A stretch of 64,000 nt of DNA from Candidatus Omnitrophota bacterium (GCA_016928555.1 JAFGKM010000005.1:9758-73757); one strand, 5' to 3'. Shown: positions 11,759 to 54,576, numbered from the stretch's first letter. Translations and numbers: made by a program. The notes: a model not told the origin generated them from the sequence alone.

Positions 11759-11798
11759 AACCGCACCCTTTAAATTTATTTAGGGGGTGCGGTTTTTT
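11759..11798 (+). terminator. rho-independent terminator (CCGCACCC-loop-GGGTGCGG + TTTTTT)
   Basis: 8-9-bp GC-rich stem with a 15-nt loop followed by a T6 run, directly after the small ORF. Confidence 0.6.
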
Positions 11799-12717
11799 AT
11801 CTGCCTATTGAAACCGGAATGCCGGAAATCCTCTTCAACTCCTCCTCCAGTTTTTCCGGATTTATTTTATCGAGGAGATTCAGCTCTTTCAGTTTTTCAC
11901 GGGCGAGTGCTTCCACGCCGGAAATGAGGGAATAAATATCGGGGTGGACTTCAATCAAAATTTCTTTTTCAGCGGCGTAAATTTTAACCGGTTCGTAAAT
12001 AAATGCTCCGGTATCTCCGACAGCAACTTCCTCAAAAACCTTATGTATGTCTTCAGGATACAGACGCACGCATCCGTGGCTTAGGGCTTTTCCTATTGAC
12101 ATCGGCTGGTTGGTACCGTGAATTCCTGTGTGCCTGACAGATGTTCCAATCCACCTGTCGCCAAGAGGGTTATCGGGACCGGCGGGGATGATTTCCCTTT
12201 TTACCTTTTCTCTCTCGGCAATCTCCAGAGGCATGTACCATGCAGGGTCCCTGACTTTATCAACAATCATAAATTCGCCGAGCGGCGTCTGCCATGTCAC
12301 CAGGCCTATGCAGATAGGATATACTCCGGCAAGCATTCGGTTATTGAAAACATACATGCGGAATTCAGGAACGTTTATTAATATGCCGCGTTCCGTGGTT
12401 TTTGGGACGATTACATTGAGAGGAATGACAAGTTTCTGTTCCGGAAATATAAGATTGGGATTGTCTATGCCGTTGGCGCGGGCAATTGCAGGGTAAGAGA
12501 CTCCGTATATCCTGGCTATATTGAAAAGGGATTCGTCAGGTTTTACGGTGTGTATAATATTTTCACCCGTTATAAACAATTGCTGGGGAATTGAGTTGTT
12601 GTTTGAAGAAGAGAGCGTATCTGTCCCTGTTTCAGCATAAACGGTATAAAGTACTCCGGCAAGCATTAACAGTCCTGCAACCAACAAACGTATCAAGTTC
12701 TTTCTTCTCTGGTTCAT
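11797..12717 (-). CDS. LysM domain-containing L,D-transpeptidase (YkuD family)
   Basis: N-terminal membrane anchor, LysM (HTVKPDESLFNIARIYGVSYPAIARANGI) and the L,D-transpeptidase catalytic motif HGTNQPMSIGKALSHGCVRL. Confidence 0.85.
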   Translation of the reverse strand: MNQRRKNLIRLLVAGLLMLAGVLYTVYAETGTDTLSSSNNNSIPQQLFITGENIIHTVKPDESLFNIARIYGVSYPAIARANGIDNPNLIFPEQKLVIPLNVIVPKTTERGILINVPEFRMYVFNNRMLAGVYPICIGLVTWQTPLGEFMIVDKVRDPAWYMPLEIAEREKVKREIIPAGPDNPLGDRWIGTSVRHTGIHGTNQPMSIGKALSHGCVRLYPEDIHKVFEEVAVGDTGAFIYEPVKIYAAEKEILIEVHPDIYSLISGVEALAREKLKELNLLDKINPEKLEEELKRISGIPVSIGR

Positions 12718-12809
12718 GGCTGGTATTATATTGCTTCATCCTTTCTAAAGTCAAACTTTTTCTTTATGTCAGCGACATCAAGAGATGAAATTTGTTGTAC
12801 GTTTTTTTC

Positions 12810-12818
12810 TGGTATAAT
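12810..12818 (+). promoter_or_regulatory. extended -10 promoter element TGgTATAAT
   Basis: TGGTATAAT lies about 35 nt upstream of ATG 12854, which has a GGGGGT Shine-Dalgarno. This favours 12854 over the first ATG at 12833. Confidence 0.45.
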
Positions 12819-12853
12819 ATATTTCTATTCTCATGATTCCATTGGGGGTAAAA

Positions 12854-13867
12854 ATGAGCAGAGAGCTGTTTCTTAAAAGCGTCGTTAGGGAAAATGATTC
12901 CGGCATGACTGTTTTCGGCACCGGAACCAGCATTGTATGCAGAGATGTTATGGAAAGCGTAAAAACTTATTTGCCGCAAGGACATATAGAACCTGAGGCG
13001 ATGTTCAACCTTGCTCTTGCCGGCCATACTCTTCTGGGATTCGACGTAGTCATGCCTCTTTTCAGCACATGCCATGAGGCAGCGTCCATGGGATGCAGCG
13101 TCAAGTGGGGCGGACCTGAAATGATGCCTGAGAGCGGCGGACCGATATTCAAAACATCCGATGATATAAATATTCCGGCAGACCTGCTTGCCCGGCCGGG
13201 TTGTGCCGTGCCTCTAAAAGCCATCGCTATGCTGCGAAAAGAGTTAGGAGATGAAGCGGCTGTTTGCGGCAAGGTTTTTGGAAGCTGGACTCAGGCGTAC
13301 CACTACTTCGGGATAGAAAATTTTCTTATCAAAACAATTACCGAGCCGGATGAGGTCAAACGGATTTTGGAAAAATTGATGCCCGTGACCATTCAATTTG
13401 CACAAGCTCAGATAGAGGCCGGTGCAGACTGTATTCTTCTCGGAGACCACGCCACACGTGATCTCTGCAGTCCTTCTTCCTATAAAGAATTTTTGATGGA
13501 CATGCATGCTCAACTGGCTGATGCTGTAAAAGCGCCTTTGATATTGCATATATGCGGCAATACTTCAGACCGCATCAGTTATATTTCCCGTACAGGCCTG
13601 CCGTGTTTTCACTGGGATACCAAGACAGGTTCACCGCAGGAAGTAAGGAATTTAGCCGGTGAAAAACTTTCGTTGATGGGAGGAATAAGCAATCTTAGAT
13701 TGCTTAACGGCACACCGGACGAGATAGCAGAGATGGCTTTTTCCGCGGCATGTGCCGATATAGATATAATAGGTCCCGAGTGCGCTATTCCCTTGACAAC
13801 GCCTCTTGCCAATCTTAAGGCAATAACTTCTATCGGCAGGAAAAAAAGAATAAGAAGGAAAATTTAG
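12854..13867 (+). CDS. uroporphyrinogen decarboxylase (URO-D)/MtaA-like family protein, paralog 1
   Basis: HICGNT...GGISN...P.EIA.. C-terminal architecture typical of the URO-D/MtaA/CmuA superfamily. Confidence 0.7.
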   Translation: MSRELFLKSVVRENDSGMTVFGTGTSIVCRDVMESVKTYLPQGHIEPEAMFNLALAGHTLLGFDVVMPLFSTCHEAASMGCSVKWGGPEMMPESGGPIFKTSDDINIPADLLARPGCAVPLKAIAMLRKELGDEAAVCGKVFGSWTQAYHYFGIENFLIKTITEPDEVKRILEKLMPVTIQFAQAQIEAGADCILLGDHATRDLCSPSSYKEFLMDMHAQLADAVKAPLILHICGNTSDRISYISRTGLPCFHWDTKTGSPQEVRNLAGEKLSLMGGISNLRLLNGTPDEIAEMAFSAACADIDIIGPECAIPLTTPLANLKAITSIGRKKRIRRKI

Positions 13868-15051
13868 AGGCTTCGTGCAAATTCTCTGATAGTCTCCAGC
13901 CTGTCGATTTCGGCGTCGGGCAGAACATTGTCTGAAACTTCCAGAATTAAAGGCTCGCCCCTTCTGTAGCTTTTTTTGAATTCTGCAAGGAAGTTTTTGA
14001 ATTGAGTATCGGAAAAAGATGATTTGAAAAGAATCGTTGAAGGTATTCCCCCGCAAATTACCTGTTCCGGACGCAAACTGTCTCTTATTTCCCTGTAGGT
14101 ATTTTTTACCATGGGGGCTGTACTTACAGCCTGCAGAATGTCTATGCCGCTCTGTCTGTATAACTCCAGCAATTGATTGTTTTCGCCGTCGCAGTGAGAG
14201 ATGACCAATCCGCCTTTTTCATGTATAATTTCGCATACATTATTCAAAAAAGGAAGGATATGTTCTCTGAAAAAAGGAGGAAAAGTGAGCATGCTGTCAT
14301 AGTTTCCTCCCCAGACTACTATGGGTTTCTTTGCACATTCTGTTACAGTTTTCAAAATACTCAATAAAAAACTTTCAAGCACTTTGCATAATGCGAGAAG
14401 TTTTTTTAGATTAAGCTTGTATTCTATATAAAAGAAAGAAGGATCCATTAAATCACGAAGAACGGCATGCATGGGACTTGCCGCCAGATAGCCGTAAACA
14501 GGGGGGAATCCTTCGTCTCCGACGGCCTCCAGTGACATGCGGTAATTTTCCGGTTTAGGGATAACCTTGACGGAAGCAAAGATATCCATAACCTTGCTAT
14601 AATCATCCTCGGACTTTATAAGATGCTCTTTTATAGGCGGTAAAGTTGAACCCTGCTTTTTTAACGTCTCGTCCATCAGGAAGCTGCCGGATAAATTACT
14701 TTCGGGGAGTTCGTATTTAACCCGTATCAAACCGTTATCGTTATTTACAATCGTCTTAAAAGAGGGGTCCAAAGCAACGTCATATGGAATATCTCTGGAT
14801 GAAAAAATGCCCAATAGCCTGTTTTGAAGAGAAATAATGTTGTAGTTATCGCTAAAATCAGGAAGAATTTTATTATAAGTGAGGTCAAGATTTTTAACAA
14901 TCTGTTTTAAGCTCAGGCCTTTAAATTTTTCCGGCAGGATCCCTTTATAAGAATTGCTGTAGTACCATATATCCATTCTTGGAGCAAAGGGAACGCCTTC
15001 CTGCATATTACCCCTCAATGCTTCCAAAAAAATCTCTTTTTTATTTTTCAT
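13864..15051 (-). CDS. URO-D-like family protein, paralog 2
   Basis: SHCDGEN...LEVSDNVLPDAEIDRL is a URO-D-like C-terminus. It is convergent with paralog 1 and overlaps it by 4 nt. Confidence 0.65.
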   Translation of the reverse strand: MKNKKEIFLEALRGNMQEGVPFAPRMDIWYYSNSYKGILPEKFKGLSLKQIVKNLDLTYNKILPDFSDNYNIISLQNRLLGIFSSRDIPYDVALDPSFKTIVNNDNGLIRVKYELPESNLSGSFLMDETLKKQGSTLPPIKEHLIKSEDDYSKVMDIFASVKVIPKPENYRMSLEAVGDEGFPPVYGYLAASPMHAVLRDLMDPSFFYIEYKLNLKKLLALCKVLESFLLSILKTVTECAKKPIVVWGGNYDSMLTFPPFFREHILPFLNNVCEIIHEKGGLVISHCDGENNQLLELYRQSGIDILQAVSTAPMVKNTYREIRDSLRPEQVICGGIPSTILFKSSFSDTQFKNFLAEFKKSYRRGEPLILEVSDNVLPDAEIDRLETIREFARSL

Positions 15052-15192: not shown

Positions 15193-16725
15193 ATGCTTGC
15201 CAAAATCAACTCGCTGACAATCTGGGGGATTGAAGGGTATTCCGTGGAAGTTGAGGTGGATATAAGTTACGGCGTGCCCGCAGTTTCCGTGGTGGGCCTG
15301 CCGGACCAGGCGGTAAAAGAGAGCAGGGACAGGATAAAGCCGGCTATAAAAAACTCGGGTTTTGATTTTCCCGCAAACGGCAAAATAGTAATCAATCTCG
15401 CGCCGGCAGACATAAAAAAGGAAGGTTCTTACTTTGACCTGCCCATTGCGGCGGGCATACTCGCCGCGCAGAGTCTCCTTCCTTTTGACCGCCTCGCGGA
15501 GTTTTCTTTTGTCGGGGAGCTTGCTTTGGACGGTACTTTAAGGCCCGTAAAAGGCATCCTTCCCATCGCCATAAAGCTTTCGGAACTTAAAGAAGGGCGC
15601 AAAAAACTTATCATACCTGCGGAAAATGCTCTTGAAGCGTCAATTATCAAGGGCATAGAGGTTTATCCTGTAAAAAATTTAAGGGATTGTATGGCATTTC
15701 TTACCGGCAAAAAAAAGATTGAGCCGGCTGTATGCAACGTTAAATCTCTTTTTGAATCTAAAAGGAAATACAGCCTGGATTTCAAGGATGTAAAAGGGCA
15801 GGCGTATGCGAAAAGGGCGATAGAGGTTGCGGTCGCGGGCGCGCATAACATCATTATGGCCGGCTCTCCCGGGGCAGGGAAGACAATGCTCGCTTCAAGG
15901 ATGCCGTCCATACTGCCGGCGCTTACGCTTCCCGAGGCGCTTGAGATAACAAGGGTGCACTCCGTCGCCGGAATATTGCAGGAAGGGCTTATCACCGAGA
16001 GGCCGTTCAGGGCTCCTCACCATACCATATCGGACGTTGCCCTCATAGGGGGAGGCAATATACCCAAACCGGGAGAGGTAAGCCTTGCTCATAACGGAGT
16101 TTTGTTTCTTGACGAACTGCCCGAGTTCCACAGGGATGTCCTGGAAGTTTTGCGACAGCCCCTTGAGGACGGGAAGGTAAATATATCAAGGGCGAGAGGC
16201 AGGATTGCTTTTCCCGCAAGGTTTCTTATGGCGGCATCCATGAACCCGTGTTATTGCGGGTGGTACGGAGATGCCGCAAGGCAGTGCAACTGCACCCTTG
16301 CCCAGATACTTAAATACAGAAAAAAGATTTCCGGACCGTTGCTGGACAGGATAGACATACACATAGAAGTTTCAAGCCTGCCTTCCGGAGCCCTGCTTAA
16401 AGAGCGGGAGGAAGAACCGTCCGAAACAATAAGGCGGCGCGTGGAGAAAGCGAGGGCTGTTCAGCAAAAACGGTTTGAAGGCACGGGTATATTCTTCAAC
16501 GGGCATATGTCCGCCTCCCAGATAAAAAAATACTGCGTTCTTGATGAAGAATGCGTGAGGTTAATAAAGACCGCGCTTGATAAGATGCGGTTGTCGGCGC
16601 GCGCCTATGATAAGATACGCAAGGTGGCCCGGACCATTGCCGACCTTGACGCCTGTGAAGCCATACGTCCCCAGCACCTCGCCGAAGCAATCCAGTACCG
16701 CAGTCTCGACCGGGATATCTGCTGA
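15193..16725 (+). CDS. yifB: YifB/ComM family Mg-chelatase-like AAA+ ATPase
   Basis: Lon-like N-terminal domain, Walker A GSPGAGKT and ChlI-type C-terminus; 510 aa. Confidence 0.9.
   Translation: MLAKINSLTIWGIEGYSVEVEVDISYGVPAVSVVGLPDQAVKESRDRIKPAIKNSGFDFPANGKIVINLAPADIKKEGSYFDLPIAAGILAAQSLLPFDRLAEFSFVGELALDGTLRPVKGILPIAIKLSELKEGRKKLIIPAENALEASIIKGIEVYPVKNLRDCMAFLTGKKKIEPAVCNVKSLFESKRKYSLDFKDVKGQAYAKRAIEVAVAGAHNIIMAGSPGAGKTMLASRMPSILPALTLPEALEITRVHSVAGILQEGLITERPFRAPHHTISDVALIGGGNIPKPGEVSLAHNGVLFLDELPEFHRDVLEVLRQPLEDGKVNISRARGRIAFPARFLMAASMNPCYCGWYGDAARQCNCTLAQILKYRKKISGPLLDRIDIHIEVSSLPSGALLKEREEEPSETIRRRVEKARAVQQKRFEGTGIFFNGHMSASQIKKYCVLDEECVRLIKTALDKMRLSARAYDKIRKVARTIADLDACEAIRPQHLAEAIQYRSLDRDIC
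16661..16725. repeat. 65-bp direct repeat copy 1 (last 65 nt of yifB including the stop codon)
   Basis: Identical to 17447..17511 (ccatacgtccccagcacctcgccgaagcaatccagtaccgcagtctcgaccgggatatctgctga). Confidence 0.9.
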
Positions 16726-16742
16726 AGCCGCAATTTAAAGTA

Positions 16743-16771
16743 TTGACTTCTGAAAAATCATTGAGTATCAT
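16743..16771 (+). promoter_or_regulatory. sigma70-like promoter TTGACT-N17-TATCAT upstream of mntA
   Basis: Canonical 17-nt spacing. The GGAGAAAGG Shine-Dalgarno and ATG 16791 follow. Confidence 0.5.
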
Positions 16772-16790
16772 ATGAATGAAAGAATAACTA

Positions 16791-17102
16791 TTGGAGAAAG
16801 GTATGAAAAAGCTTGAAGCAATTCAGAAACTGCTGACTGAACATAAAGAGGAACTGCTGGAAAAATATTCTTTGAGAGAAATAGGAATATTCGGATCATA
16901 TGTAAGGGGTGAACAGAAAGAAGTGAGCGATTTGGACCTTCTTGTGGAATTTGATGAAGATGCGAGAATAAGCCTGATGGATTTTGTCGGGATAGAAAAT
17001 GATTTAAGCGATTTGTTGGGAGTTAAGGTAGACTTGGTGGAAAAATCAGCGTTGAAACCGAGAATAGGCAAGCGTATATTGGAAGAGGTAGTCCTCTTAT
17101 GA
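16791..17102 (+). CDS. mntA: MntA-type nucleotidyltransferase antitoxin (minimal NTase)
   Basis: [18 protein letters not shown] = GSx10DxD NTase motif; 103 aa. It overlaps hepT by 4 nt. Confidence 0.85.
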
Positions 17103-17440
17103 AAAGAGAGATAGGAGATTATATACAGGATATAGTTGATGCTATGAATGCGGCTGAAGAATTTGTAAAAGAAATTGACTATGCCGAACTTGTATCAGAT
17201 ACGAAAACAATTTATGCCGTTGTCAGGTCTATAGAGATTATAGGAGAGGCGGCTAAAAACATACCTGAGGAAATAAGAAAAAAATATCCGGATATACCGT
17301 GGAGAAAGATGGCAGGAATGCGTGATAAAGTTATCCACGAGTATTTTGGGGTAAAATTGGAAAGGGTATGGGAAACAATTCAGAAGGATTTCCCCGCAAT
17401 AAAACCTCTGTTTGAAAAGATGCTGCATGATTATGATTGA
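17099..17440 (+). CDS. hepT: HepT-type HEPN toxin (DUF86)
   Basis: HEPN Rx4HxY motif RDKVIHEY; 113 aa; classic MNT/HEPN pair. Confidence 0.85.
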
Positions 17441-17446
17441 ATCACC

Positions 17447-17511
17447 CCATACGTCCCCAGCACCTCGCCGAAGCAATCCAGTACCGCAGTCTCGACCGGG
17501 ATATCTGCTGA
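17447..17511. repeat. 65-bp direct repeat copy 2
   Basis: Exact copy of the yifB 3' end, located directly after hepT. Confidence 0.9.
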
Positions 17512-17528
17512 CATTAAGATGAAGCTTC

Positions 17529-17557
17529 TTGACATACACCTGTTTAAGAGGTATATT
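17529..17557 (+). promoter_or_regulatory. sigma70-like promoter TTGACA-N17-TATATT upstream of the RHH antitoxin
   Basis: Consensus -35, 17-nt spacer, and a GGAGG Shine-Dalgarno before ATG 17594. Confidence 0.5.
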
Positions 17558-17593
17558 CTAAATGAATACAAAAGAATACACCGGAGGCATAAT

Positions 17594-17836
17594 ATGTCGA
17601 AAACCATAACTATACGTCTGGACGAAAAAGCCTATCAGAAAATTGCCGATTATTCAAGAGCGGAAAACCGTCCAATTTCAAATTTTATTGAAACGGCCAC
17701 ACTGCGTTTTATGAAAGAACTGGAATTCACTGATGATACTGAGGTTGCAGAGATACTGTCAAATGAATCTTTTGTCAGACGGTTGAAAGAAGGTTCCCGG
17801 GATGCAAAAAAGAAAAGAGGTAAATTTGTCTATTGA
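17594..17836 (+). CDS. ribbon-helix-helix (CopG-like) antitoxin
   Basis: TITIRLDEKAYQKIADYSRAENRPISNFIETA is an RHH beta-strand plus two helices. 80 aa from the Met with the Shine-Dalgarno. Confidence 0.65.
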   Translation: MSKTITIRLDEKAYQKIADYSRAENRPISNFIETATLRFMKELEFTDDTEVAEILSNESFVRRLKEGSRDAKKKRGKFVY

Positions 17837-18116
17837 ATACCGGATTTTTGAAACGGACAGATTTATAAAGGATTTTAAAGAGATTACGCTTTCATTCCGG
17901 GAAACCATTGAAGAGAAGTTGCAGGACCACGTGTATCCGCAGTTGAAACAACAGCCCTATTTCGGCCCTAATATAAAAAAACTCAAAGGGTGGAAGCCTG
18001 ATACGTGGCGATATAAAATCGGCTCCTGGCGTTTCTTTTATGAAATAGACACGGAAGAAAAGATAGTTTTTATGTTAGCGGCGGAGCACCGCAGCAGCGC
18101 CTATAGAAAAAAATAA
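17802..18116 (+). CDS. RelE/ParE-family toxin
   Basis: YKIGSWRFFYEIDTEEKIVFMLAAEHRSSAY C-terminal motif. The likely real start is TTG 17826 after an AAGAGG Shine-Dalgarno, overlapping the antitoxin end. Confidence 0.75.
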   Translation: MQKRKEVNLSIEYRIFETDRFIKDFKEITLSFRETIEEKLQDHVYPQLKQQPYFGPNIKKLKGWKPDTWRYKIGSWRFFYEIDTEEKIVFMLAAEHRSSAYRKK

Positions 18117-18169
18117 GCCTCAAAGAATTTGTTTGTCTTTTGAGGTGAAATCAAGTCCTGCCTTCTGTG

Positions 18170-20011
18170 TCATTTCGGCAAGACCCTGCCGGGGACTGGT
18201 TGTTTCTTATGGGTTTTTCTGAAATGTACGATAAGAATTGCCACGGCGGCAGGGGTAATGCCGGATATCCTGGATGCCTGCCCCATTGTAAGAGGGTTGA
18301 ATTTAGATAATTTTTCCCTTATTTCCAGCGACAGTCCAGCTATTTTGTTGTAATCAATATCTGCGGGTATTTTTATCTTTTCAAGGTTCTTGAATTCCTT
18401 TATCTCCGCGAGCATCTTTTCTATGTAGGGCGCATACTTCGCCTCTATCTCGGCTTCTTTTAAGACTTCCTCCGGATAACCTGCCGGAGAAACAAGCTCT
18501 TTTATTTTGACATCCGGCTTGGAAAGATGTTCAAAGAAGGAGATTTTCCCGTTTTCAACGGCTATCTTTTCACTTTTCAGCATGTGAATCAATTCATGGA
18601 TTTTTTCTTTTTTTATTCTTGTCTTTTCCCATGCGTCTCTTCTCAAAAGCCCGATTTTATAGCTTGTTTCCCTCAATCTTATATCGGCGTTGTCCTCCCT
18701 TAACAGCAGACGGTATTCAACCCTTGAGGTGAACATCCTGTACGGCTCCATTGTTCCTTTAGTGGTCAGGTCGTCTATAAGCACTCCCGTGTATCCGGTT
18801 GCCCTGTCAATAATAAGAGGTTTTTTCCCCTTTACCCGAAGGGATGCGTTTATCCCCGCCATAAGTCCCTGCGCGGCGGCCTCCTCGTATCCCGTGGTGC
18901 CGTTTATCTGTCCGGCAAGAAACAAGTTTTTAATCTTCTTTGTCTCAAGGGAAGGATAGAGCTGCGTGGGTTCCACGACATCGTGTTCTATGCCGTAGCC
19001 GTAGCGCTCTATCTTAACGTCTTCCAACCCTTCTATCGTATGTATGAATTCGTCCTGTACGTCAACCGGCAGGCTGGTGGAGATTCCGTTCGGATAATAA
19101 ACGGAGGTTTCAAGGCCTTCGGGTTCAAGGAATACGTGGTGTCTTGTATGATGGGGAAATTTTACTATCTTGTCTTCGAGGGAGGGGCAGTATCTTACGC
19201 CGGTTCCCGTGATTATCCCGGTAAAAAGAGGAGAACGGCCAAGGTTATTTCTTATAATGGCGTGCGTTTTTTCATTTGTGTAGGTGACGTAACAGGGCAC
19301 CTGTTCAGTCTCAATTTTTTCCGTGGAGAAGGAGAAGGGGACGGGCGGTCTGTCTCCGTGCTGGATTCTCATCCTGCCGAAGTCAATTGTTCTTCCGTCA
19401 AGCCGTGCGCATGTTCCCGTTTTAAACCTCAGCATCTCAAAACCGTTTTTTTTCAGGGAGTCCGAAAGCATTCTGCTTGATTTCTTCTCCTCAATCCTGC
19501 CGCCTGAAATCTTTTCACTGCCGATATATATCGTACCGTTTAGAAATGTCCCCGGTGTCAGTATAACGGTTTTCCCGAGGATATTCCCTTCGCCGCCGAG
19601 TTCAATCCCTCTGACCTCGCCGCCCTCTACGATAATACCTGTAACTTCTCCCTCAAGGATTTCCATGCCAGGCTGGCGTTTAAGGACATTCTGCATGTAA
19701 TCGGCATATTTATCCCTGTCCACCTGCGCTCTTGACGAGCGGACAGCCGGCCCTTTGGAGGCGTTAAGTATCCTGAACTGGATGCCTGCCGCATCGGCGG
19801 CTTTTCCCATCTCGCCGCCTAAAGCGTCCACTTCCTTTACCATGTGTCCTTTACCGACGCCTCCTACGGCGGGATTGCATGACAAACAGCCGATTCTGTT
19901 TTTTGTAAAGGTGACCAGGAGTACGGAAAGTCCCATCCTTGCTCCTGCGAGAGCTGCCTCCGCGCCTGCATGCCCTGCACCTACCGCGATAATGTCGTAT
20001 GTTTTTCCCAT
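18170..20011 (-). CDS. mnmG: tRNA uridine-5-carboxymethylaminomethyl modification enzyme MnmG (GidA)
   Basis: FAD motif DIIAVGAGHAGAEAA and full-length GidA similarity. Start chosen at ATG 20011 (MGKTYDII). Confidence 0.95.
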   Translation of the reverse strand: MGKTYDIIAVGAGHAGAEAALAGARMGLSVLLVTFTKNRIGCLSCNPAVGGVGKGHMVKEVDALGGEMGKAADAAGIQFRILNASKGPAVRSSRAQVDRDKYADYMQNVLKRQPGMEILEGEVTGIIVEGGEVRGIELGGEGNILGKTVILTPGTFLNGTIYIGSEKISGGRIEEKKSSRMLSDSLKKNGFEMLRFKTGTCARLDGRTIDFGRMRIQHGDRPPVPFSFSTEKIETEQVPCYVTYTNEKTHAIIRNNLGRSPLFTGIITGTGVRYCPSLEDKIVKFPHHTRHHVFLEPEGLETSVYYPNGISTSLPVDVQDEFIHTIEGLEDVKIERYGYGIEHDVVEPTQLYPSLETKKIKNLFLAGQINGTTGYEEAAAQGLMAGINASLRVKGKKPLIIDRATGYTGVLIDDLTTKGTMEPYRMFTSRVEYRLLLREDNADIRLRETSYKIGLLRRDAWEKTRIKKEKIHELIHMLKSEKIAVENGKISFFEHLSKPDVKIKELVSPAGYPEEVLKEAEIEAKYAPYIEKMLAEIKEFKNLEKIKIPADIDYNKIAGLSLEIREKLSKFNPLTMGQASRISGITPAAVAILIVHFRKTHKKQPVPGRVLPK

Positions 20012-20126
20012 TTTAAAATCGCCGCCCCTCATCCTTTGCCTTCTCCCACAAGGTGAGAAGGGATAAGGACAGAGGTAATTATATAACAATTAACGCAGTA
20101 TGGACAAAAAATGCGGCATGCCGGTT

Positions 20127-24456: not shown

Positions 24457-25617
24457 TCAGCTTATGCCGAAAAAATTTCTGTAGGTTTTTACCACGGCAT
24501 AGTAGTTTTCAATCTTTACGTCTTCGTGTACGGAATGGCTTAAATGAAGGATGTGCCCTCCCTTTGTCCTTAGCCCGTGGTTGAGGCATTCTATGACTTC
24601 TTTTTCCGCCTCGGCAGGGCCTGCATTGCACATTGTGTATCTCGCGTCTATGTTTCCTATTATGCATATCCTGTCAGCAACGCCTTCTTCAATGAGCTTT
24701 TCCCATGTCATGCCGGCGGATTTGTCAACCTCTTTGTATCCGTCAATCCCAGAATTGAAGAAGAAATCGTCTTTTATGGGCCAGTGGTTTCCGTCGGAAG
24801 TGTAGACGGCAAATGCACCCATATTGTGTATCAGATTAACGTGTTCCCGCATTACCGGCAGAATGAATTTGCGGTAAAGGGCAGGGGAGATGAAAGGCCC
24901 TTTGTCACAGCTTACGTCTCCCCCTATAGCGACAACCCTGCATCCGTCTTCAATCATTTTTTTCGTGTATTCAAAACAACCCGCTTTCTGCATTTCAATC
25001 CAGCGGAGGTATATTTCCGGTTTTTCAAGCATCCACATCAGCATAAAAGGCTGGTAAAAAGCCACTCCTGTTCCCGCTCCGGATTCAGCCATATACACCC
25101 AGTCAATGCCGTCGGCTTTCGCGAACTCTCTCACTCTTTTCATGACAGGGCTGTATATACGCAGTTTTTCGCTGTTGCCGGTATTCCCGCCCCATGCTTC
25201 TATTTTCTTTATCATTTCTTCTTCTGAAATCTGCTGGGAATAAGAATGAGCTGGGTTTTCCGGTAACACAAGCTTGGTTCTTTCGTTGAAAATATAAGGC
25301 GTTCCCTCAAGAGTCCAGCTCTTTTTTCCGGTTTTTACGGGGCGCTTGCCCCTGATAAAACCGTGGCTTGTCAGCCGTACCATGTCCAAACCGAAAAAAC
25401 GGCATATCTTGTACTGCGCCTTAGCAGACGCCTCTATGAATTCTTCTTCGGGAACGCCTTCAGCCATCGCATCCCATGCCATTTCCGAATCCGTTGCGAC
25501 GGTTCTTCCGCAGATATCCCAGTGTATGGGTTGAAACGGCTGGAATATTTCAAACAACGGCGTTCTGTCCGGTTTCCCGTGTTTTAGAGCCGTGAATACT
25601 CTTTCTTTCCTGTCCAT
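24457..25617 (-). CDS. URO-D-like family protein, paralog 3
   Basis: URO-D superfamily barrel with ...ICIIGNIDARYTM...GGHILHLSHSV C-terminus; 386 aa. Confidence 0.6.
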   Translation of the reverse strand: MDRKERVFTALKHGKPDRTPLFEIFQPFQPIHWDICGRTVATDSEMAWDAMAEGVPEEEFIEASAKAQYKICRFFGLDMVRLTSHGFIRGKRPVKTGKKSWTLEGTPYIFNERTKLVLPENPAHSYSQQISEEEMIKKIEAWGGNTGNSEKLRIYSPVMKRVREFAKADGIDWVYMAESGAGTGVAFYQPFMLMWMLEKPEIYLRWIEMQKAGCFEYTKKMIEDGCRVVAIGGDVSCDKGPFISPALYRKFILPVMREHVNLIHNMGAFAVYTSDGNHWPIKDDFFFNSGIDGYKEVDKSAGMTWEKLIEEGVADRICIIGNIDARYTMCNAGPAEAEKEVIECLNHGLRTKGGHILHLSHSVHEDVKIENYYAVVKTYRNFFGIS

Positions 25618-47258: not shown

Positions 47259-47292
47259 CTGGATTTTTCTCATTTGCCACTGAAAGAAAAAA

Positions 47293-47333
47293 GGGTCAGG
47301 CATGAAAAAGCTCTGACCCCTTTTATGTTTTTT
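47293..47333. terminator. bidirectional intrinsic terminator (GGGTCAG-loop-CTGACCC flanked by A-run and T-run)
   Basis: The hairpin is followed by TTTTATGTTTTTT on the + strand and preceded by AAAAAA. It serves the tRNA-His transcript and the convergent BNR-repeat gene. Confidence 0.6.
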
Positions 47334-47338
47334 AGGTT

Positions 47339-48742
47339 TTACCTTAATGAAACCAGCCATGCGAGAGGACGCAGGACTGTTCTTACCAGCATGCGCACAG
47401 CAGGCCTTCTGCTGATGTATGATGCGGCAGAGGGGCTGTGTTTGTAATACCACCTGACAAATGCCCTGCCTGCCCTGTTTGTCAGCAGGTGCCTGTCGCG
47501 GAAATCCTGAAGCTTCATTACTTCCGACGCCATCGGTGTGCCGTATGCCGCGGTGGCTATGAAACACCAGCCGTCGCTGCGGGCAAGGTCAACAAATTGC
47601 CCAAAATTGGCGTAGATACTCTGGAAACTGCTGAAATACTGGGACCATACCGCCACAACTTTGTCCCCGCTCACCGCCACCTGAGGGCCATATGCATCCC
47701 CTGTCGTATTGTTTTCCAGCAGTTGGGCCGTTCCCCATGTTGCGCCGCCATCGGTGGAATAGTTGGAGTAAATACTAACGGAACTGCCGTCAGACTGGAG
47801 CCATACCGCCGCAACCTTGTTTCCGTCCATCGCCACCTGGGGGGACTCTGCATCATAGTTAGCAGTTTCCAGCAGTTGAGCCGTTTCCCATGTCGCACCG
47901 CCGTCGGTGGAATAGCGGGCGTGGATATTATTGTAAGTGCCGTCAGACTGTCGCCACACCGCAACAACTTTGTCCCCGCTCATCGCCACCTGGGGGTAAT
48001 ATGCATCATAGTCAGCAGTTTCCAGCAGTTGGGCCGTTTCCCATGTCGCGCCGCCATCGGTGGAATAGTTGGAGTAGATACTAGCATAACTGCCGCTCCG
48101 CTGGTACCACACCGCAACAACTTTGTCCCCGCTCATCGCCACCTGGGGGTCATCTGCATCATAGTCAGCAGTTTCCAGCAGTTGGGCCGTTTCCCATGTC
48201 GCGCCGCCATCGGTGGAGTAGCGGGCATAGATATTATCGTCAGTGCCGTCAGACTGGGGCCACACCGCCACAACTTTGTCCCCGCTTATCGCCACCTGGG
48301 GGTAATCTGCATTATAGTCAGCAGTTTCAAGCAGTTGGGCCGTTTCCCATGTCGCGCCGCCGTCGGTGGAGCAGTTGGAATAGATACTATTGTAAGTGCC
48401 GTCCCTCTGGAGCCATACCGCCACAACTTTGTCCCCGCTTATCGCCACCTGAGGGGAATATGCATCATAGTTAGCAGTTTCCAGCATTTGGGCCGTTTCC
48501 CATGTCGCACCGCCGTCGGTGGAGCAGCTGGAATAGATATTCAAGTAACTGCCATCATACTGTTGCCACACCGCCACAACCTTGTCCCCGCTCATCGCCA
48601 CCTGAGGGTCATAGGCCTCATATTCAGAAGTTTCCAGCAGTTGCGGAGCAGTATTCCAGATAAGTTCCGGAGCCCCTTCAAGAGTAGTAGATACAAACAT
48701 ACCGATAAACAATGTAAAACACACCATAAAGATTCTTTTCAT
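47339..48742 (-). CDS. secreted BNR/Asp-box repeat (sialidase-like beta-propeller) protein with conserved CFIATAAYG C-terminal domain
   Basis: Signal peptide and seven tandem 47-aa repeats, each with an Asp-box STDGGATW. The C-terminal 75 aa are almost identical to the C-terminus of the 49757..52162 gene. Confidence 0.75.
   Translation of the reverse strand: MKRIFMVCFTLFIGMFVSTTLEGAPELIWNTAPQLLETSEYEAYDPQVAMSGDKVVAVWQQYDGSYLNIYSSCSTDGGATWETAQMLETANYDAYSPQVAISGDKVVAVWLQRDGTYNSIYSNCSTDGGATWETAQLLETADYNADYPQVAISGDKVVAVWPQSDGTDDNIYARYSTDGGATWETAQLLETADYDADDPQVAMSGDKVVAVWYQRSGSYASIYSNYSTDGGATWETAQLLETADYDAYYPQVAMSGDKVVAVWRQSDGTYNNIHARYSTDGGATWETAQLLETANYDAESPQVAMDGNKVAAVWLQSDGSSVSIYSNYSTDGGATWGTAQLLENNTTGDAYGPQVAVSGDKVVAVWSQYFSSFQSIYANFGQFVDLARSDGWCFIATAAYGTPMASEVMKLQDFRDRHLLTNRAGRAFVRWYYKHSPSAASYISRRPAVRMLVRTVLRPLAWLVSLR
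47590..48655. repeat. seven tandem ~141-bp coding repeats (high nucleotide identity)
   Basis: Near-identical 141-nt units are visible directly in the sequence (e.g. ...caccgccacaactttgtccccgct.atcgccacctgggggt.atctgcat.atagtcagcagtttc.agcagttgggccgtttcccatgtcgc.ccgcc.tcggtgga...). Confidence 0.8.
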
Positions 48743-49068
48743 CTGATATCCTCCATTTGACTTTGAAAAAAAAGCTGTTATCCTGCCGACCTTTTTTCAC
48801 CAACAGTGATATTAAACACCCCCGCCCCGGGAATGTCAAGTTTAAATTAGCACCCACAAATACCTCATAAATACAGCAAATCCTCTCCCCACAGCAACTA
48901 CAGATGATTGTTTACTATACAAGCTATCTCAAGGATTTCGGGGCTTTATTTTTTATATCAGGGGAGGGAAGGGGCGAGGATACGGTGCATTTAGGAAATA
49001 AATTTCGATTCATGATGTCAGGAAAGTGATCTACTGTGGTTCCTTTAGAACTCAGGTATGGAGAAAAC

Positions 49069-49688: not shown

Positions 49689-49707
49689 GTTTGCCTCTGA
49701 AATGAGA

Positions 49708-49755
49708 AAGGGGCCGGACCTTTTACAGTCCTGGCCCCTTTTATGTTTTTTAGGT
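49708..49755. terminator. bidirectional intrinsic terminator, paralogous to 47293..47333
   Basis: AAGGGGCC...GGCCCCTT stem followed by TTATGTTTTTT; same sequence context as the terminator after tRNA-His. Confidence 0.55.
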
Positions 49756-49756
49756 T

Positions 49757-52162
49757 TTACCGGATCGAAACCAGCCATGCAATGGGACGAAGGACTGTTC
49801 TCACCAGCATGCGCACAGCAGGCCTTCTGCTGATGTACGATGCGGCAGATGGGCTGTGTTTGTAATACCACCTTACGAAAGCCCTGCCTGCTCTGTTTGT
49901 CAGCAGATGCCTGTCGCGGAAGTTGCGCAGTTTGACAACCTCCGAAGCCATCGGCGTTCCGTATGCCGCGGTGGCTATGAAGCAGTTACCGTTGCCGGTT
50001 CCGAAAAACGGGCATGATTTTTTGCCTTCAAACTTGCTTACAAAAGCGTCAGCAAAACCCCCGTTATATGCCGTATCATATGCGCCAGGTGTTACGGGGA
50101 AATCTGTAGAGTATGTCTCTCCAGCGACAAACAGGTTATTCCGGCTGTCCATGGCAATGGCATTAGCATAATCATAATCACCGCCGCCTAGGAAGGTAGA
50201 ATAGAGAAGTTCCGTCAAGTTATTATCAAACTTGCTTATGAAGCCATCAAAAATACCATTGAAGACCGGAGCATAGGCGTCGAGTGTTGTCGGGAAAGAT
50301 TCTGACTCGGTATTTCCCGCCACAAATACATTATCCTGATTGTCTATGGCGACGGCATAACCATTATCTTCATTAATGCCGCCCATGAATGTAGAAGCAA
50401 GAAGTTGTGTCAGGTCATTGTCAAATTTGCCTAAAAAAACATCACTGTGTCCGTTATACACCTCATCATAGGCGCCTGTCGTTGCAGGGAAGTTCTCTGA
50501 AGAAGTCCGTCCTGTTATAAAGACGTTGTCCTGGCTGTCTATGGTTACGGCATAACCAGTATCTTCATTAATGCCGCCCATGAATGTGGAAGCAAGCAGT
50601 TGTGTCAGGTCATTTTGAAACTTGCTTACAAAGGTGTCGCCCCCGCCGTTATATCCTTCATCATAAGCGCCGGTCGTTGCGGGGAAGTTCTCTGAAGAAG
50701 TCATTCCTGTTATAAAGACGTTGTCCTGGCTGTCTATGGCTATAGAATAAGCATAATTCCATTCACTGCCGCCTATGAAGGTTGAGGCAAGCAGTTGTGC
50801 CAGGTTTTTATCGAACTTGCCTACAAAAGCGTTGCTATTGCCGTTAAGTGTTTCAGCATATGCGCCATCCGTTACAGGGAAATCTTCTGACGAGGTAGTC
50901 CCTGCGACAAATACATTATCCATAGTGTCTATCGCAAGGCCGTCTGCACGGTCAAAGTCCTCGCCGCCCAGAAAGGTAGAGACGAGCAGTTCTGACAGAC
51001 TATTATTGAATTTACCTATAAAGGCATCCCAACTGCCGCCGTTATAATTTTCATTATAAGCCTCGTCCGTTGCAGGAAAGTCTTCTGAAGATGTTTGTCC
51101 TGCAAACAGGATATTGTTTTCTTTGTCTATAACCATGAAGTTAATAGTATCGTTGCTATCGCCTCCTATAAAGGTGGAAGCAAGCAGTTGTGTCAGGTCA
51201 TTATTAAACTTGCTTATAAAGACATCATTGGCTCCCCCCTTATACTCTGTCTCGTAGGCACCCTGTGTTGTCGGGAAGTCTTCTGATGCAGTATTCCCTG
51301 CTACAAAGATATTGTCGTTGCTGTCTATGGCGATAGTTGTGGCATAATCAGAATAGCTGCCGCCTATGAAGGTTGAGGCAAGCAAGGGGTCTATCACAAG
51401 CGGCTTTCTCCTGTCATACCTGTTTACGGCAAAGGAATAGGTGTCTTCGGAAATAATCCTATAAGAAGTTTTAATCCCTTTCATGCCTCCCCGTATTTTC
51501 TGGTATGCAAAAGGTTTTGTGAAAGATATATCTCCGAGTTCGGTCTTTACCACCAACTGTCCGTCTTTGTCTACTTCCAGTCCATGTCCTCCCTCAACCT
51601 TTATCCGGATGTCTTTTACTGCTCCGCCCGGCATGACATGAAAAATCTTTTCGGCATTATTGCCCCGTGCACGAAGGGTCAACTCTATGTTCTCGTATAC
51701 CTCTCCGAGGCTGACTGCATTGTAGGATTCAATATTCCTCTGCCACTTTGCCGGGTCATTTCCCTTAAAATAGTTTATCCTTGCCGATGTTTTTTCCCGT
51801 CCTGTTACATCTGCCTGTCCCGCTCCTACAAGATACTCTTTCAATGCTACGCCTATAACTGTCTCTTTCCGTATTCCTGCACGTACTCCTTTTTTCCCGG
51901 TATTCCCCGCCCCTTCGGATACCTTGGGCAGAGAGTAGACTGTTTCTCCCTTATCCGTTACAAAAAGAGTGCCGCCGAATGTCCGCGCGTAATACGCCAC
52001 TTCCCCTGGATACTGTCCGCTGTTCTTGAGAAAGGGGATGCTTGCCAAAGAGAGCTTTAACTTAACCTGCTGTTCTTCAACAGCCCTGTCTGAAACAGCG
52101 GCGAAACTTATGCCCACAAACAGAATCATCAAAATACCGAATATCTTTTTCAATGCCAACAC
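49757..52162 (-). CDS. secreted SBBP-type beta-propeller repeat protein with conserved CFIATAAYG C-terminal domain
   Basis: Signal peptide, an N-terminal domain of about 260 aa, seven repeats of about 52 aa (LLASTFIGGS..D.GYAIAIDSQDNVFVAGNTSSEDFPTT.GAYDE.YNGG.DAFVSKF), then the shared C-terminal 75 aa. Confidence 0.75.
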   Translation of the reverse strand: MLALKKIFGILMILFVGISFAAVSDRAVEEQQVKLKLSLASIPFLKNSGQYPGEVAYYARTFGGTLFVTDKGETVYSLPKVSEGAGNTGKKGVRAGIRKETVIGVALKEYLVGAGQADVTGREKTSARINYFKGNDPAKWQRNIESYNAVSLGEVYENIELTLRARGNNAEKIFHVMPGGAVKDIRIKVEGGHGLEVDKDGQLVVKTELGDISFTKPFAYQKIRGGMKGIKTSYRIISEDTYSFAVNRYDRRKPLVIDPLLASTFIGGSYSDYATTIAIDSNDNIFVAGNTASEDFPTTQGAYETEYKGGANDVFISKFNNDLTQLLASTFIGGDSNDTINFMVIDKENNILFAGQTSSEDFPATDEAYNENYNGGSWDAFIGKFNNSLSELLVSTFLGGEDFDRADGLAIDTMDNVFVAGTTSSEDFPVTDGAYAETLNGNSNAFVGKFDKNLAQLLASTFIGGSEWNYAYSIAIDSQDNVFITGMTSSENFPATTGAYDEGYNGGGDTFVSKFQNDLTQLLASTFMGGINEDTGYAVTIDSQDNVFITGRTSSENFPATTGAYDEVYNGHSDVFLGKFDNDLTQLLASTFMGGINEDNGYAVAIDNQDNVFVAGNTESESFPTTLDAYAPVFNGIFDGFISKFDNNLTELLYSTFLGGGDYDYANAIAMDSRNNLFVAGETYSTDFPVTPGAYDTAYNGGFADAFVSKFEGKKSCPFFGTGNGNCFIATAAYGTPMASEVVKLRNFRDRHLLTNRAGRAFVRWYYKHSPSAASYISRRPAVRMLVRTVLRPIAWLVSIR

Positions 52163-53841: not shown

Positions 53842-54048
53842 TTATCTTCTATATTCCTGTAAAAAGTCTTCTAATTTTCTGAACTTTAGAGAATTTTGTC
53901 TCATTGCTTTTAACATTTTCAGGTCTTCAATGTCTTTCAACCTCTCAAGGATTTCTTCATATGTTTCTATAGACAAAATTACTCCAACAGATTTTCCGTT
54001 TTTAACTATAAGCTCTTTTGGCATATACATAAGTGCATTTTCCGTCAT
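53842..54048 (-). CDS. orphan Phd/YefM-like antitoxin, paralog of 49377..49583
   Basis: About 80% nucleotide identity to the 49377..49583 antitoxin over the conserved core. It is followed not by a ParE toxin but by the small-ORF/NTase pair. Start taken at ATG 54048. Confidence 0.5.
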   Translation of the reverse strand: MTENALMYMPKELIVKNGKSVGVILSIETYEEILERLKDIEDLKMLKAMRQNSLKFRKLEDFLQEYRR

Positions 54049-54576
54049 TTCCTTTACTGATTTTTTTGATGTTTTACTATAGATGCAGAATTCAGACAAT
54101 GAAAAGGGTCAAAATCTTTATCCTTAGCTGCTCGTTTTTTCCCTCCTGCGCGGCTGTTTTAAAAACCGGTAATAAAAATTCTGTAGTGAGGAAAGTTACG
54201 CGACAATTTCAGCGCGGAGTCCGCCAACGCTTTAGTGGAGGAAATGGCCGACCCGATGCGTTTCGAAAGCCGAGACGGCGCCGAATCCCCCTATGGAATC
54301 AGGTCTACCTGAAAGCGTTGCTGCACAAGGGTTTGCAGTGATATAAGTATTTGGAATGATACTACCAGACCTCATTCTTACTGCCGATTTTATCTGCGGG
54401 AATTAGAGAATTTGACAGGGCAGGGATGCTGTGAAAAAATATATTTTAACTTTACTTGTGTGGATAACTGGAATAAATAGACGAAAGGATATTGCAACAA
54501 AATTGCTCCTGTTTCCCGTTCATCCAGAAGAAAAACAGTATTCCATCAATTATTTACCGGCCGAGAGGCATAGATC

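Follow-up and report, generated by a model that had tools for sequence, protein, structure and literature searches.

In Dehalococcoides, genomic islands specific for ssrA stand in tandem in numbers that vary per strain; a serine-recombinase module, DsiB, was found in 16 of 31, and the islands without an integration module, about half, have been read as cis-mobilizable elements gathered by accretion (PMC3146451). Here we analysed a locus that invites comparison with these islands, on a 64,000-nt stretch of DNA from a Candidatus Omnitrophota bacterium (GCA_016928555.1 JAFGKM010000005.1:9758-73757; hereafter the window, with positions counted from its first letter), in which the last 65 nt of the gene yifB recur downstream of a complete toxin-antitoxin (TA) gene pair. 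We read this 65-nt repeat, with a confidence somewhat above even, as the junction element of an array of TA cassettes at the yifB 3′ terminus in one Omnitrophota clade. Comparison with related loci indicates that the array is probably old and shared by related bacteria, and not a fresh insertion private to the window genome.

By analogy, the Dehalococcoides ssrA islands appear to be the closest described counterpart: in both cases the units stand in tandem behind one conserved single-copy gene, have a repeat of that gene's 3′ end as boundary, and are low in GC (PMC3146451). In the window, GC is 37-39% in the cassettes, 51% in yifB and 46% on average. The Dehalococcoides islands use an RNA gene as target, have a 20-bp repeat and measure several kb to tens of kb (PMC3146451), whereas the yifB array uses a protein-coding terminus and a repeat of 60-73 nt, three times longer, and none of the sampled loci showed an integrase. 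The locus thus resembles known tandem islands bounded by target-gene 3′-end repeats and differs from them by its TA-only cassettes of 0.6-0.8 kb.

Several other systems touch on the same features. The prophage e14, which resides in icd of E. coli, supplies or duplicates the terminal codons of its target gene so that the gene stays intact, and elements of this type leave the displaced terminus as a pseudogene fragment at their far end; they are single and large and carry a tyrosine integrase beside one att site, which is not so for the yifB cassettes. The features of integration at a gene 3′ end are seen here as well, because direct repeats of the yifB terminus flank the insert, the yifB open reading frame (ORF) is preserved and an empty site exists in a relative (L081), and, as in cis-mobilizable elements, att-like repeats flank cassettes that lack recombination and transfer genes. 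Acinetobacter pdif modules and Neisseria minimal mobile elements are small, recombinase-less and often TA pairs, are found in alternative combinations at fixed junctions, and depend for their movement on host Xer recombinases or on transformation and homologous recombination. The pdif modules have 28-bp XerC/D sites in alternating orientation, none of which is detectable in the yifB copies, and the minimal mobile elements, unlike the yifB array, have no repeat of the flanking gene. The comM/yifB family is itself a known target of mobile elements, since Tn6022/AbaR and Tsy insert mid-gene at the comM Walker B region, disrupt comM and use TnsF or tyrosine-recombinase machinery (PMC10293859); because the yifB array uses the terminus and preserves the gene, we regard it as a different phenomenon. 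Our literature searches returned no description of such a yifB-terminus TA array.

The array in the window comprises the following features, in which TA1 and TA2 denote the first and second cassettes.

15193..16725, plus strand: yifB, comM-family Mg-chelatase-like AAA+ ATPase gene, intact 510-aa ORF at the head of the array (Pfam)
16661..16725, plus strand: repeat copy 1, the coding yifB terminus (last 21 codons and TGA)
16743..16771, plus strand: TA1 sigma-70-like promoter, TTGACT-17-TATCAT (promoter scan)
16803..17102, plus strand: mntA, MNT-domain nucleotidyltransferase antitoxin, 99 aa (Pfam PF01909, NTP_transf_2, 3.7e-18)
17099..17440, plus strand: hepT, HEPN RNase toxin, 113 aa (Pfam PF01934, HepT-like, 6.5e-30)
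17441..17446, plus strand: 6-nt spacer ATCACC from the hepT stop to repeat copy 2 (direct reading)
17447..17511, plus strand: repeat copy 2, a non-coding displaced yifB terminus, 100% identical to copy 1
17529..17557, plus strand: TA2 sigma-70-like promoter, TTGACA-17-TATATT (promoter scan)
17594..17836, plus strand: putative TA2 antitoxin, 80 aa (80-aa orthologues precede relE in L102 and L106-L110)
17802..18116, plus strand: relE/parE-family toxin, 104 aa (PF05016 and TIGR02385 above cutoffs)

Repeat finding and a DNA search agree that the 65-mer is present in exactly two copies in the window, both on the plus strand and with 0 mismatches, and a match of this kind arose in 0 of 100 dinucleotide shuffles of the window. 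The copies lie 786 nt apart from start to start with 721 nt between them, an interval filled by the promoter, mntA and hepT, and the pair is the only direct repeat of at least 25 nt in the window outside repeat-protein genes near 47-54 kb. An earlier sequence-only reading had described the exact repeat of the yifB end including its TGA, the complete mntA/hepT pair behind its promoter in the 721 bp between the copies, the second promoter after copy 2, and a yifB reading frame left intact by the duplication; all of these descriptions held when checked by shuffling, Pfam, motif inspection, promoter scanning and ORF analysis. The 510-aa YifB matches Pfam Mg_chelatase at 2.9e-93 along with ChlI and Mg_chelatase_C, and is identical to the protein on a 75.5-kb contig of an NCBI 'Candidatus Omnitrophica' metagenome-assembled genome (MAG; P0001). 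In both window cassettes the −35 hexamer begins exactly 17 nt past the end of the repeat (16726-16743 and 17512-17529), which places the right part of the repeat upstream of the −35 of each TA promoter. The repeat was also considered as a terminator and rejected in that role because it forms no hairpin.

In TA1 the antitoxin gene comes first and overlaps hepT by 4 nt, and the GSX10DXD motif of MntA and the RX4HXY motif of HepT (RDKVIHEY) are readable in the translations. Because the NCBIfam equivalog scores of MntA and HepT (49 and 39 bits) fall below the cutoff of 60, we assign the pair as a probable family member of the type VII HepT/MntA TA systems and not as an equivalog. Among 5.8 billion proteins searched, the closest HepT homologues (88-89% identity) are all encoded directly behind yifB (L089-L101), in samples from anaerobic digesters and other metagenomes. 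The 99-aa MntA orthologues hold the equivalent position in relatives, the TA1 promoter region is kept after yifB in L083, L101, L102, L089 and L095, and by alignment the window is collinear with the L089-L101 loci in the order yifB, mntA, hepT and second yifB-terminus copy. Copy 2 accordingly has orthologous, diverged counterparts in L089, L095, L101 and L102, and the ATCACC spacer aligns with TTTCACA in L102 and with TTCCACAA in L101 at the equivalent place, not with the window's own yifB. In L083 (4298-4500) the mntA promoter and leader are retained after yifB, with the −35 mutated to TTAACT, and mntA has decayed to a 50-aa ORF of residual similarity only, as in a dying cassette; this contig stops before any second repeat copy could appear.

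The sequence-only reading had called the second gene pair a ribbon-helix-helix (RHH) antitoxin and a RelE-like toxin. The toxin stands, with 33.3 bits for PF05016 (cutoff 23) and 32.9 for TIGR02385 (cutoff 27.9), whereas the RHH assignment of the 80-aa antitoxin has behind it solely sub-threshold DUF6290/DUF6364 matches in Pfam and no NCBIfam match. That reading had also treated TA2 as a bystander to the duplication, which the relatives contradict: in L106-L110 the same pair follows yifB and has its own repeat copy next, the TA2 junction (stop codon, YATTAARAT, TTGACA) also follows the real yifB in L106 and L107, and the nearest RelE homologues (76-85% identity) are likewise found in arrays behind yifB. 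On this comparative evidence, TA2 is a cassette of the same array system as TA1.

We compared the locus with relatives whose YifB is 76-85% identical, comprising about 11 lineages, many on contigs of 1-8 kb. The uninterrupted site that the sequence-only reading had proposed to look for is present in L081 (YifB 85% identical, the closest relative with context), which reads glyK-yifB-gidA-mutS-mutL, has no TA genes between yifB and gidA, and has the yifB stop 7 nt from the convergent gidA stop. In L082 and L111, yifB is followed by an operon led by a secreted-looking protein of 538-551 aa. Other genomes carry cassettes: yifB-TA1-copy in L089, L095 and L101; yifB-TA2-copy in L106; yifB-TA2-copy-hicA-hicB (inverted)-copy-operon in L107/L108; and, in L102-L105, a yifB pseudogene fragment of 164 nt followed by TA1 (with hepT shortened to 89 aa), copy, TA2, copy and operon. 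Three TA families (mntA-hepT, antitoxin-relE and hicAB) therefore appear in differing combinations, each starting at a real or copied yifB stop, and different cassettes occupy the one junction in different genomes. Each cassette measures 0.6-0.8 kb including its repeat and has its own promoter, and in L106-L108 and L102-L105 every cassette is then followed by another yifB-terminus copy.

Two of these architectures have further peculiarities. In L102 (1-7786) and also in L103-L105, the 164-nt yifB 3′ fragment abuts an unrelated divergent gene, a 5′-truncated yifB lies 5.3 kb downstream past the five-gene operon (551 aa, TPR, peptidase C39/DUF1573), and an intact yifB was not seen on the L102-L105 contigs. 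Beyond a point inside yifB (about nt 231), L107 (1-7249) and L108 share 99.8% identity, and the sequence upstream of this breakpoint in L107 is the end of the operon whose start follows the last repeat copy. The L107 contig therefore has the look of a unit that wraps around after about 7.8 kb, as a circle or a tandem duplication would, and that comprises the operon, a 5′-truncated yifB and the TA array; L108 shows the normal glyK-yifB arrangement.

The same comparison bears on whether the repeat could be an assembly artefact, in which strain variants were mis-joined through a shared 65-mer. In favour of an artefact, the MAG that contains the window was assembled from short reads, de Bruijn k-mers can be as long as 65 nt, and an empty site together with a 786-bp circle would account equally well for the assembly graph. 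Against this, the two-copy order (yifB end, TA1, second copy) was assembled independently in at least five other species by several assemblers, with copies that are not identical and hence not collapsible, so that we consider an artefact highly improbable.

To characterize the copies themselves, 14 of them from seven genomes were aligned. They start 62-73 nt before the stop codon, their homology ends at or at most about 10 nt past the stop, and it is at the stop codon that the following module starts. In the TA1-bearing relatives, the second copy is about 66-71% identical to the coding copy over 68-71 nt, with 80-93% in the best stretches. Identity to the local coding copy is uneven along the non-coding copies, amounting to 35-74% in the left third, 77-100% in the 20-nt core GAAGCCATCCAGTACCGCAG and 52-95% in the right third. 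The left parts are specific to the cassette: TCATCCAACCCCAGC follows TA2 in both L102 and L107, and CCATCC follows TA1 in L089, L095 and L102. The right thirds follow the local yifB, ending in RNL* in L089 and L095 and in DIC* elsewhere. Lineage-specific variants are shared solely in an internal tract by copies 1 and 2 of L102 (CAT, GTCAGGA), copies 2 and 3 of L107 (GGT) and copies 1 and 2 of L095. Because the copies are mosaic in this manner, recurrent repeat-to-repeat recombination is implied. Copy 3 of L102 together with its downstream sequence matches the yifB-operon junction of L082, so that the most distal copy still joins the downstream host gene as it did originally. When translated in the frame of yifB, most copies have retained ..PQHLAEAIQYRSLDRD..*, and differences from the local coding copy are distributed over the codon positions as 21:14:43 (p=1.5e-4).

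We propose that cassettes enter by recombination inside the terminal segment. In a Campbell-type form of this process, a copy borne by the cassette would recombine with the resident yifB terminus, which would restore yifB, push older termini and cassettes distally, and leave a hybrid copy whose left part is cassette-derived and whose right part is host-derived. The repeats could later mediate gene conversion as well as deletion, the latter giving empty or shorter arrays of the L081, L101 and L106 types, and the window array (yifB, mntA-hepT, copy, antitoxin-relE) would have lost its third copy. The exchange may be driven by RecA-type homologous recombination, for which the 65-nt copy would serve as a movable arm of homology, or by a candidate recombinase acting in trans. 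A perfect or near-perfect repeat of 65 nt is long enough for RecA-dependent exchange. TA addiction plausibly slows the loss of cassettes through repeat-to-repeat deletion.

The perfect identity of the window copies could also be taken as the mark of a recent private insertion, in which an ancestor with yifB, TA2 and gidA received mntA-hepT at the yifB terminus and the local 65 nt were duplicated. Apart from the 100% identity itself, this would agree with the existence of yifB-TA2 loci with a matching junction after the stop codon (L106-L110), with a TA1 synonymous divergence below that of host genes, and with entry at the head of the array, which would put TA1 proximal to yifB as in the window and L102. 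Yet L102-L105 have the same TA1-copy-TA2 order with diverged copies (about 81% aligned; 89% by BLAST over 56 nt), so that the order can be inherited; the window TA1 is 85-89% identical to its nearest relatives, with no near-identical donor known; and the homogenised tracts in L102, L107 and L095 show conversion without new insertion. We therefore consider a private insertion unlikely. The sequence-only reading had inferred mobility and named, as an observation that would speak against it, the same arrangement with divergent repeats in relatives; at least four lineages (L089, L095, L101 and L102) do carry yifB-mntA-hepT with a divergent copy. Its wider idea of integration or a recombination hotspot survives in part, namely in the duplicated terminus and in a hotspot that holds differing cassettes, and fails for recent integration. 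Perfect identity is specific to the window genome, and recent repeat-to-repeat recombination explains it better than a scar left by a first insertion would. Because partially homogenised tracts occur elsewhere without new insertion and L102 has TA1-copy-TA2 with diverged copies, the identical window copies most likely reflect a recent repeat-to-repeat exchange in an inherited array, and we modestly favour gene conversion in situ over re-insertion of TA1 in the window genome.

Host genes gave a scale for the age of the array. Between lineages, the synonymous sites of host genes have reached saturation: the synonymous divergence (pS) of yifB, glyK and gidA is 0.58-0.84, and 0.48-0.49 for the closely related L089 and L095. 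Because of this saturation, a neutral copy left by a single ancient duplication should now be unrecognisable, and the within-genome copy identities of 66-100% require repeated homogenisation, repeated insertion or selection on the sequence. TA1 pS is 0.30-0.47 where yifB pS is 0.58-0.81 in matching genome pairs (0.20-0.24 for L089-L095), and TA2, of similar composition to TA1, gives 0.44-0.68; relative to its hosts, TA1 is either younger or under stronger constraint. At the nucleotide level, TA1 identities are compressed and star-like at 83-89% (92% in L089-L095), whereas the adjacent 300 nt of yifB are 66-77% identical, a pattern suggestive of exchange of TA1 among lineages.

These distances also bear on whether the array might be a static relic, built by one or more ancestral events and since then subject to vertical descent, repeat-to-repeat deletion, decay and occasional gene conversion, with no transfer. 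Every architecture is derivable from yifB-TA1-copy-TA2-copy by deletions between copies, TA1 and host trees largely agree (L089 groups with L095, and the window is nearest L101), and decayed cassettes exist (mntA in L083, hepT in L102). But three cassette types with identical repeat boundaries would need repeated position-specific insertions at the origin, the non-coding copies of L102 and L106 bear the IRP/CGTCC variant of window/L101-type yifB and not that of the local yifB, and the star-like TA1 identities contrast with the far lower ones of the host yifB 3′ region. A relic of this kind appears distinctly improbable to us.

We looked for an integrase and for a recognisable recombinase core in the copies and found neither. 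Pfam scanning of 45 window proteins (41 ORFs of at least 150 aa across the 64 kb and the four TA proteins) gave 0 recombinase, integrase or transposase matches, and none is listed for the relatives' loci and flanks in the precomputed Pfam lists. The TA2 and hicAB cassettes are as compact as TA1, in which the promoter, mntA and hepT occupy the whole interval with no integrase next to the repeat. A cognate integrase-bearing element that uses the repeat as an att site turned up neither in the window nor in the flanks of about 11 related lineages, a weak negative given the shallow sampling. Six copies tested for an attC-like single-stranded DNA fold were no better than shuffles (z +1.59 to −0.83). 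Inverted repeats (arms of at least 6 nt, at most one mismatch) were not found in the copies except for weak 5/6 chance-like ones, there was no GTTRRRY core (direct reading gives no GTT in the window copy), and no copy has a Xer/dif-type 28-bp site of two 11-bp imperfect inverted arms and a 6-bp spacer. As for a vehicle, the repeat core had 0 matches in IMG/VR, the cassette DNA had no match in collections of phages and plasmids other than an unrelated one to yifB, and HepT relatives in viral contigs reach at most 43% identity.

These searches bear most directly on the idea of an integron-type array in which the repeats are attC sites recombined by IntI. In chromosomal integrons, TA cassettes are frequent and thought to stabilise the array, insertion takes place at the array head, and small cassettes are separated by repeats of 60-130 nt, a layout shared with the 60-70-nt repeats here (PMC3856429, PMC8191803). 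Unlike integrons, whose mostly promoterless cassettes share one orientation and whose attC palindromes carry RYYYAAC and GTTRRRY core sites, the yifB array has no intI, attI, or attC hairpin and core sites; its cassettes have their own promoters, the hicAB cassette of L107 is inverted, and its repeats share homology with the housekeeping gene beside them. With neither hairpin fold, inverted repeats nor core in the copies, and no integrase in the window or relatives' flanks, integron membership fails on every tested feature and is effectively refuted.

A bolder form of our proposal is that the yifB/comM terminus serves as a platform that acquires cassettes much as an integron does but needs no integron integrase, with the cassette-borne terminus of about 65 nt as a portable attachment or homology arm. 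A cassette would then insert at the array head in any related genome and restore yifB, either through Campbell recombination mediated by RecA once DNA has been taken up or through an undescribed trans recombinase acting on an asymmetric, non-palindromic site, and the perfect repeat of the window would be a fresh product of such an insertion. We regard this platform as doubtful.

Several observations weigh against our interpretation of the repeat as the junction element of a cassette array. Neither the window nor the sampled loci yielded a recombinase gene, and the contigs at hand show neither an excised circle nor within-species polymorphism between insertion and empty site; the sample is limited to about 11 lineages, many on 1-8-kb contigs. 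Repeat-mediated deletions acting on a single ancestral array would be enough to give all the architectures. The perfect identity offers no date, and one or two true mismatches could have been lost in assembly. TA1 pS scales roughly with host divergence (0.20-0.24 against 0.48 in L089-L095), which could reflect constraint and not transfer. The third-position bias of 21:14:43 is partly expected from evolution on the coding side, and the excess synonymous conservation of the repeat within coding yifB (0.61 vs 0.48, p=0.04) is marginal.

We also looked beyond the clade. Looking up the exact sequences of the window YifB and HepT gave no match. A scan of species-representative genomes found relatives of at most 57% YifB identity and is not informative on the orthologous site. 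Among 80 distant yifB loci (51-57% identity), a downstream terminus copy was present in 3 of about 78 (L001, L077 and L078) compared with 11 of 560 random windows; because this is no clear enrichment, we treat the phenomenon as clade-specific, and these loci give no evidence of the yifB terminus as a general hotspot. A degenerate repeat-core pattern matched three loci in a metagenome collection, one already known, one of the yifB-operon type and one unrelated. In the distant MAG locus L001 (6219-8692; YifB 57% identical), two secreted-looking ORFs of 204 and 359 aa are inserted after yifB. Behind them lies a decayed yifB 3′ fragment that is split in two, one piece of 41 nt from about −320 and another of 68 nt from the terminus at 88% identity; here a yifB end was displaced independently, and its boundaries differ. 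L077 (6499-9078) has a 1.29-kb tandem duplication that begins in the last 28-34 nt of yifB and copies a gene for a 371-aa luciferase-like monooxygenase, so that plain tandem duplication can copy the yifB terminus too.

On its right-hand side, the window array meets the chromosome as follows.

18117..18169, no strand assigned: TA2-gidA junction, no third repeat copy
18170..20089, minus strand: gidA/mnmG, conserved right-hand neighbour (ORF, Pfam; convergent with yifB in L081)

A third repeat copy after relE was not found, as the best local alignment of the repeat to 18117-18169 was no better than shuffles. Because the C-terminal tail of the window GidA is 11 aa longer than in L081 and L084, we infer that a deletion may have remodelled the junction between TA2 and gidA. 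The wider context is ordinary chromosome, with GAF-ANTAR, radical SAM, GH2 and glycerate kinase (glyK) genes upstream and gidA, mutS and mutL downstream, and the flanking synteny is shared with L081. The window holds three URO-D-family genes (11797-15051; 24457-25617), two of which, together with a YkuD/LysM gene, separate glyK from yifB; in L081, L083 and L108 glyK adjoins yifB, and in L084 a URO-D gene lies immediately 3′ of yifB. From these placements on either side of the gene, both yifB flanks seem prone to rearrangement in the clade. Farther downstream, genes at 47283-48760, 49701-52162 and also 53846-54274 have long internal tandem repeats, with units of 153 nt (5-7 copies) and 195 nt (6-7 copies) in this 47-54 kb region; they encode BNR/Asp-box and SBBP beta-propeller proteins (467 aa, 801 aa), and neighbouring beta-propeller genes share segments of 208-295 nt.

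The movement of TA systems outside plasmids, phages and integrons is poorly understood, and the yifB locus offers a concrete and testable case, in which three TA families are interchangeable at one conserved chromosomal junction in an uncultured phylum, with a built-in target-gene end and no visible recombinase. There is a minority chance that a genuinely new mechanism of cassette capture is at work. The presence of a perfect repeat on both sides of a cassette does not by itself make the insertion recent, since old repeats can be reset through concerted evolution. If homology arms alone spread the cassettes, the array would represent a minimal route for the mobility of selfish genes; if a recombinase is involved, its site architecture would be unusual in being non-palindromic.

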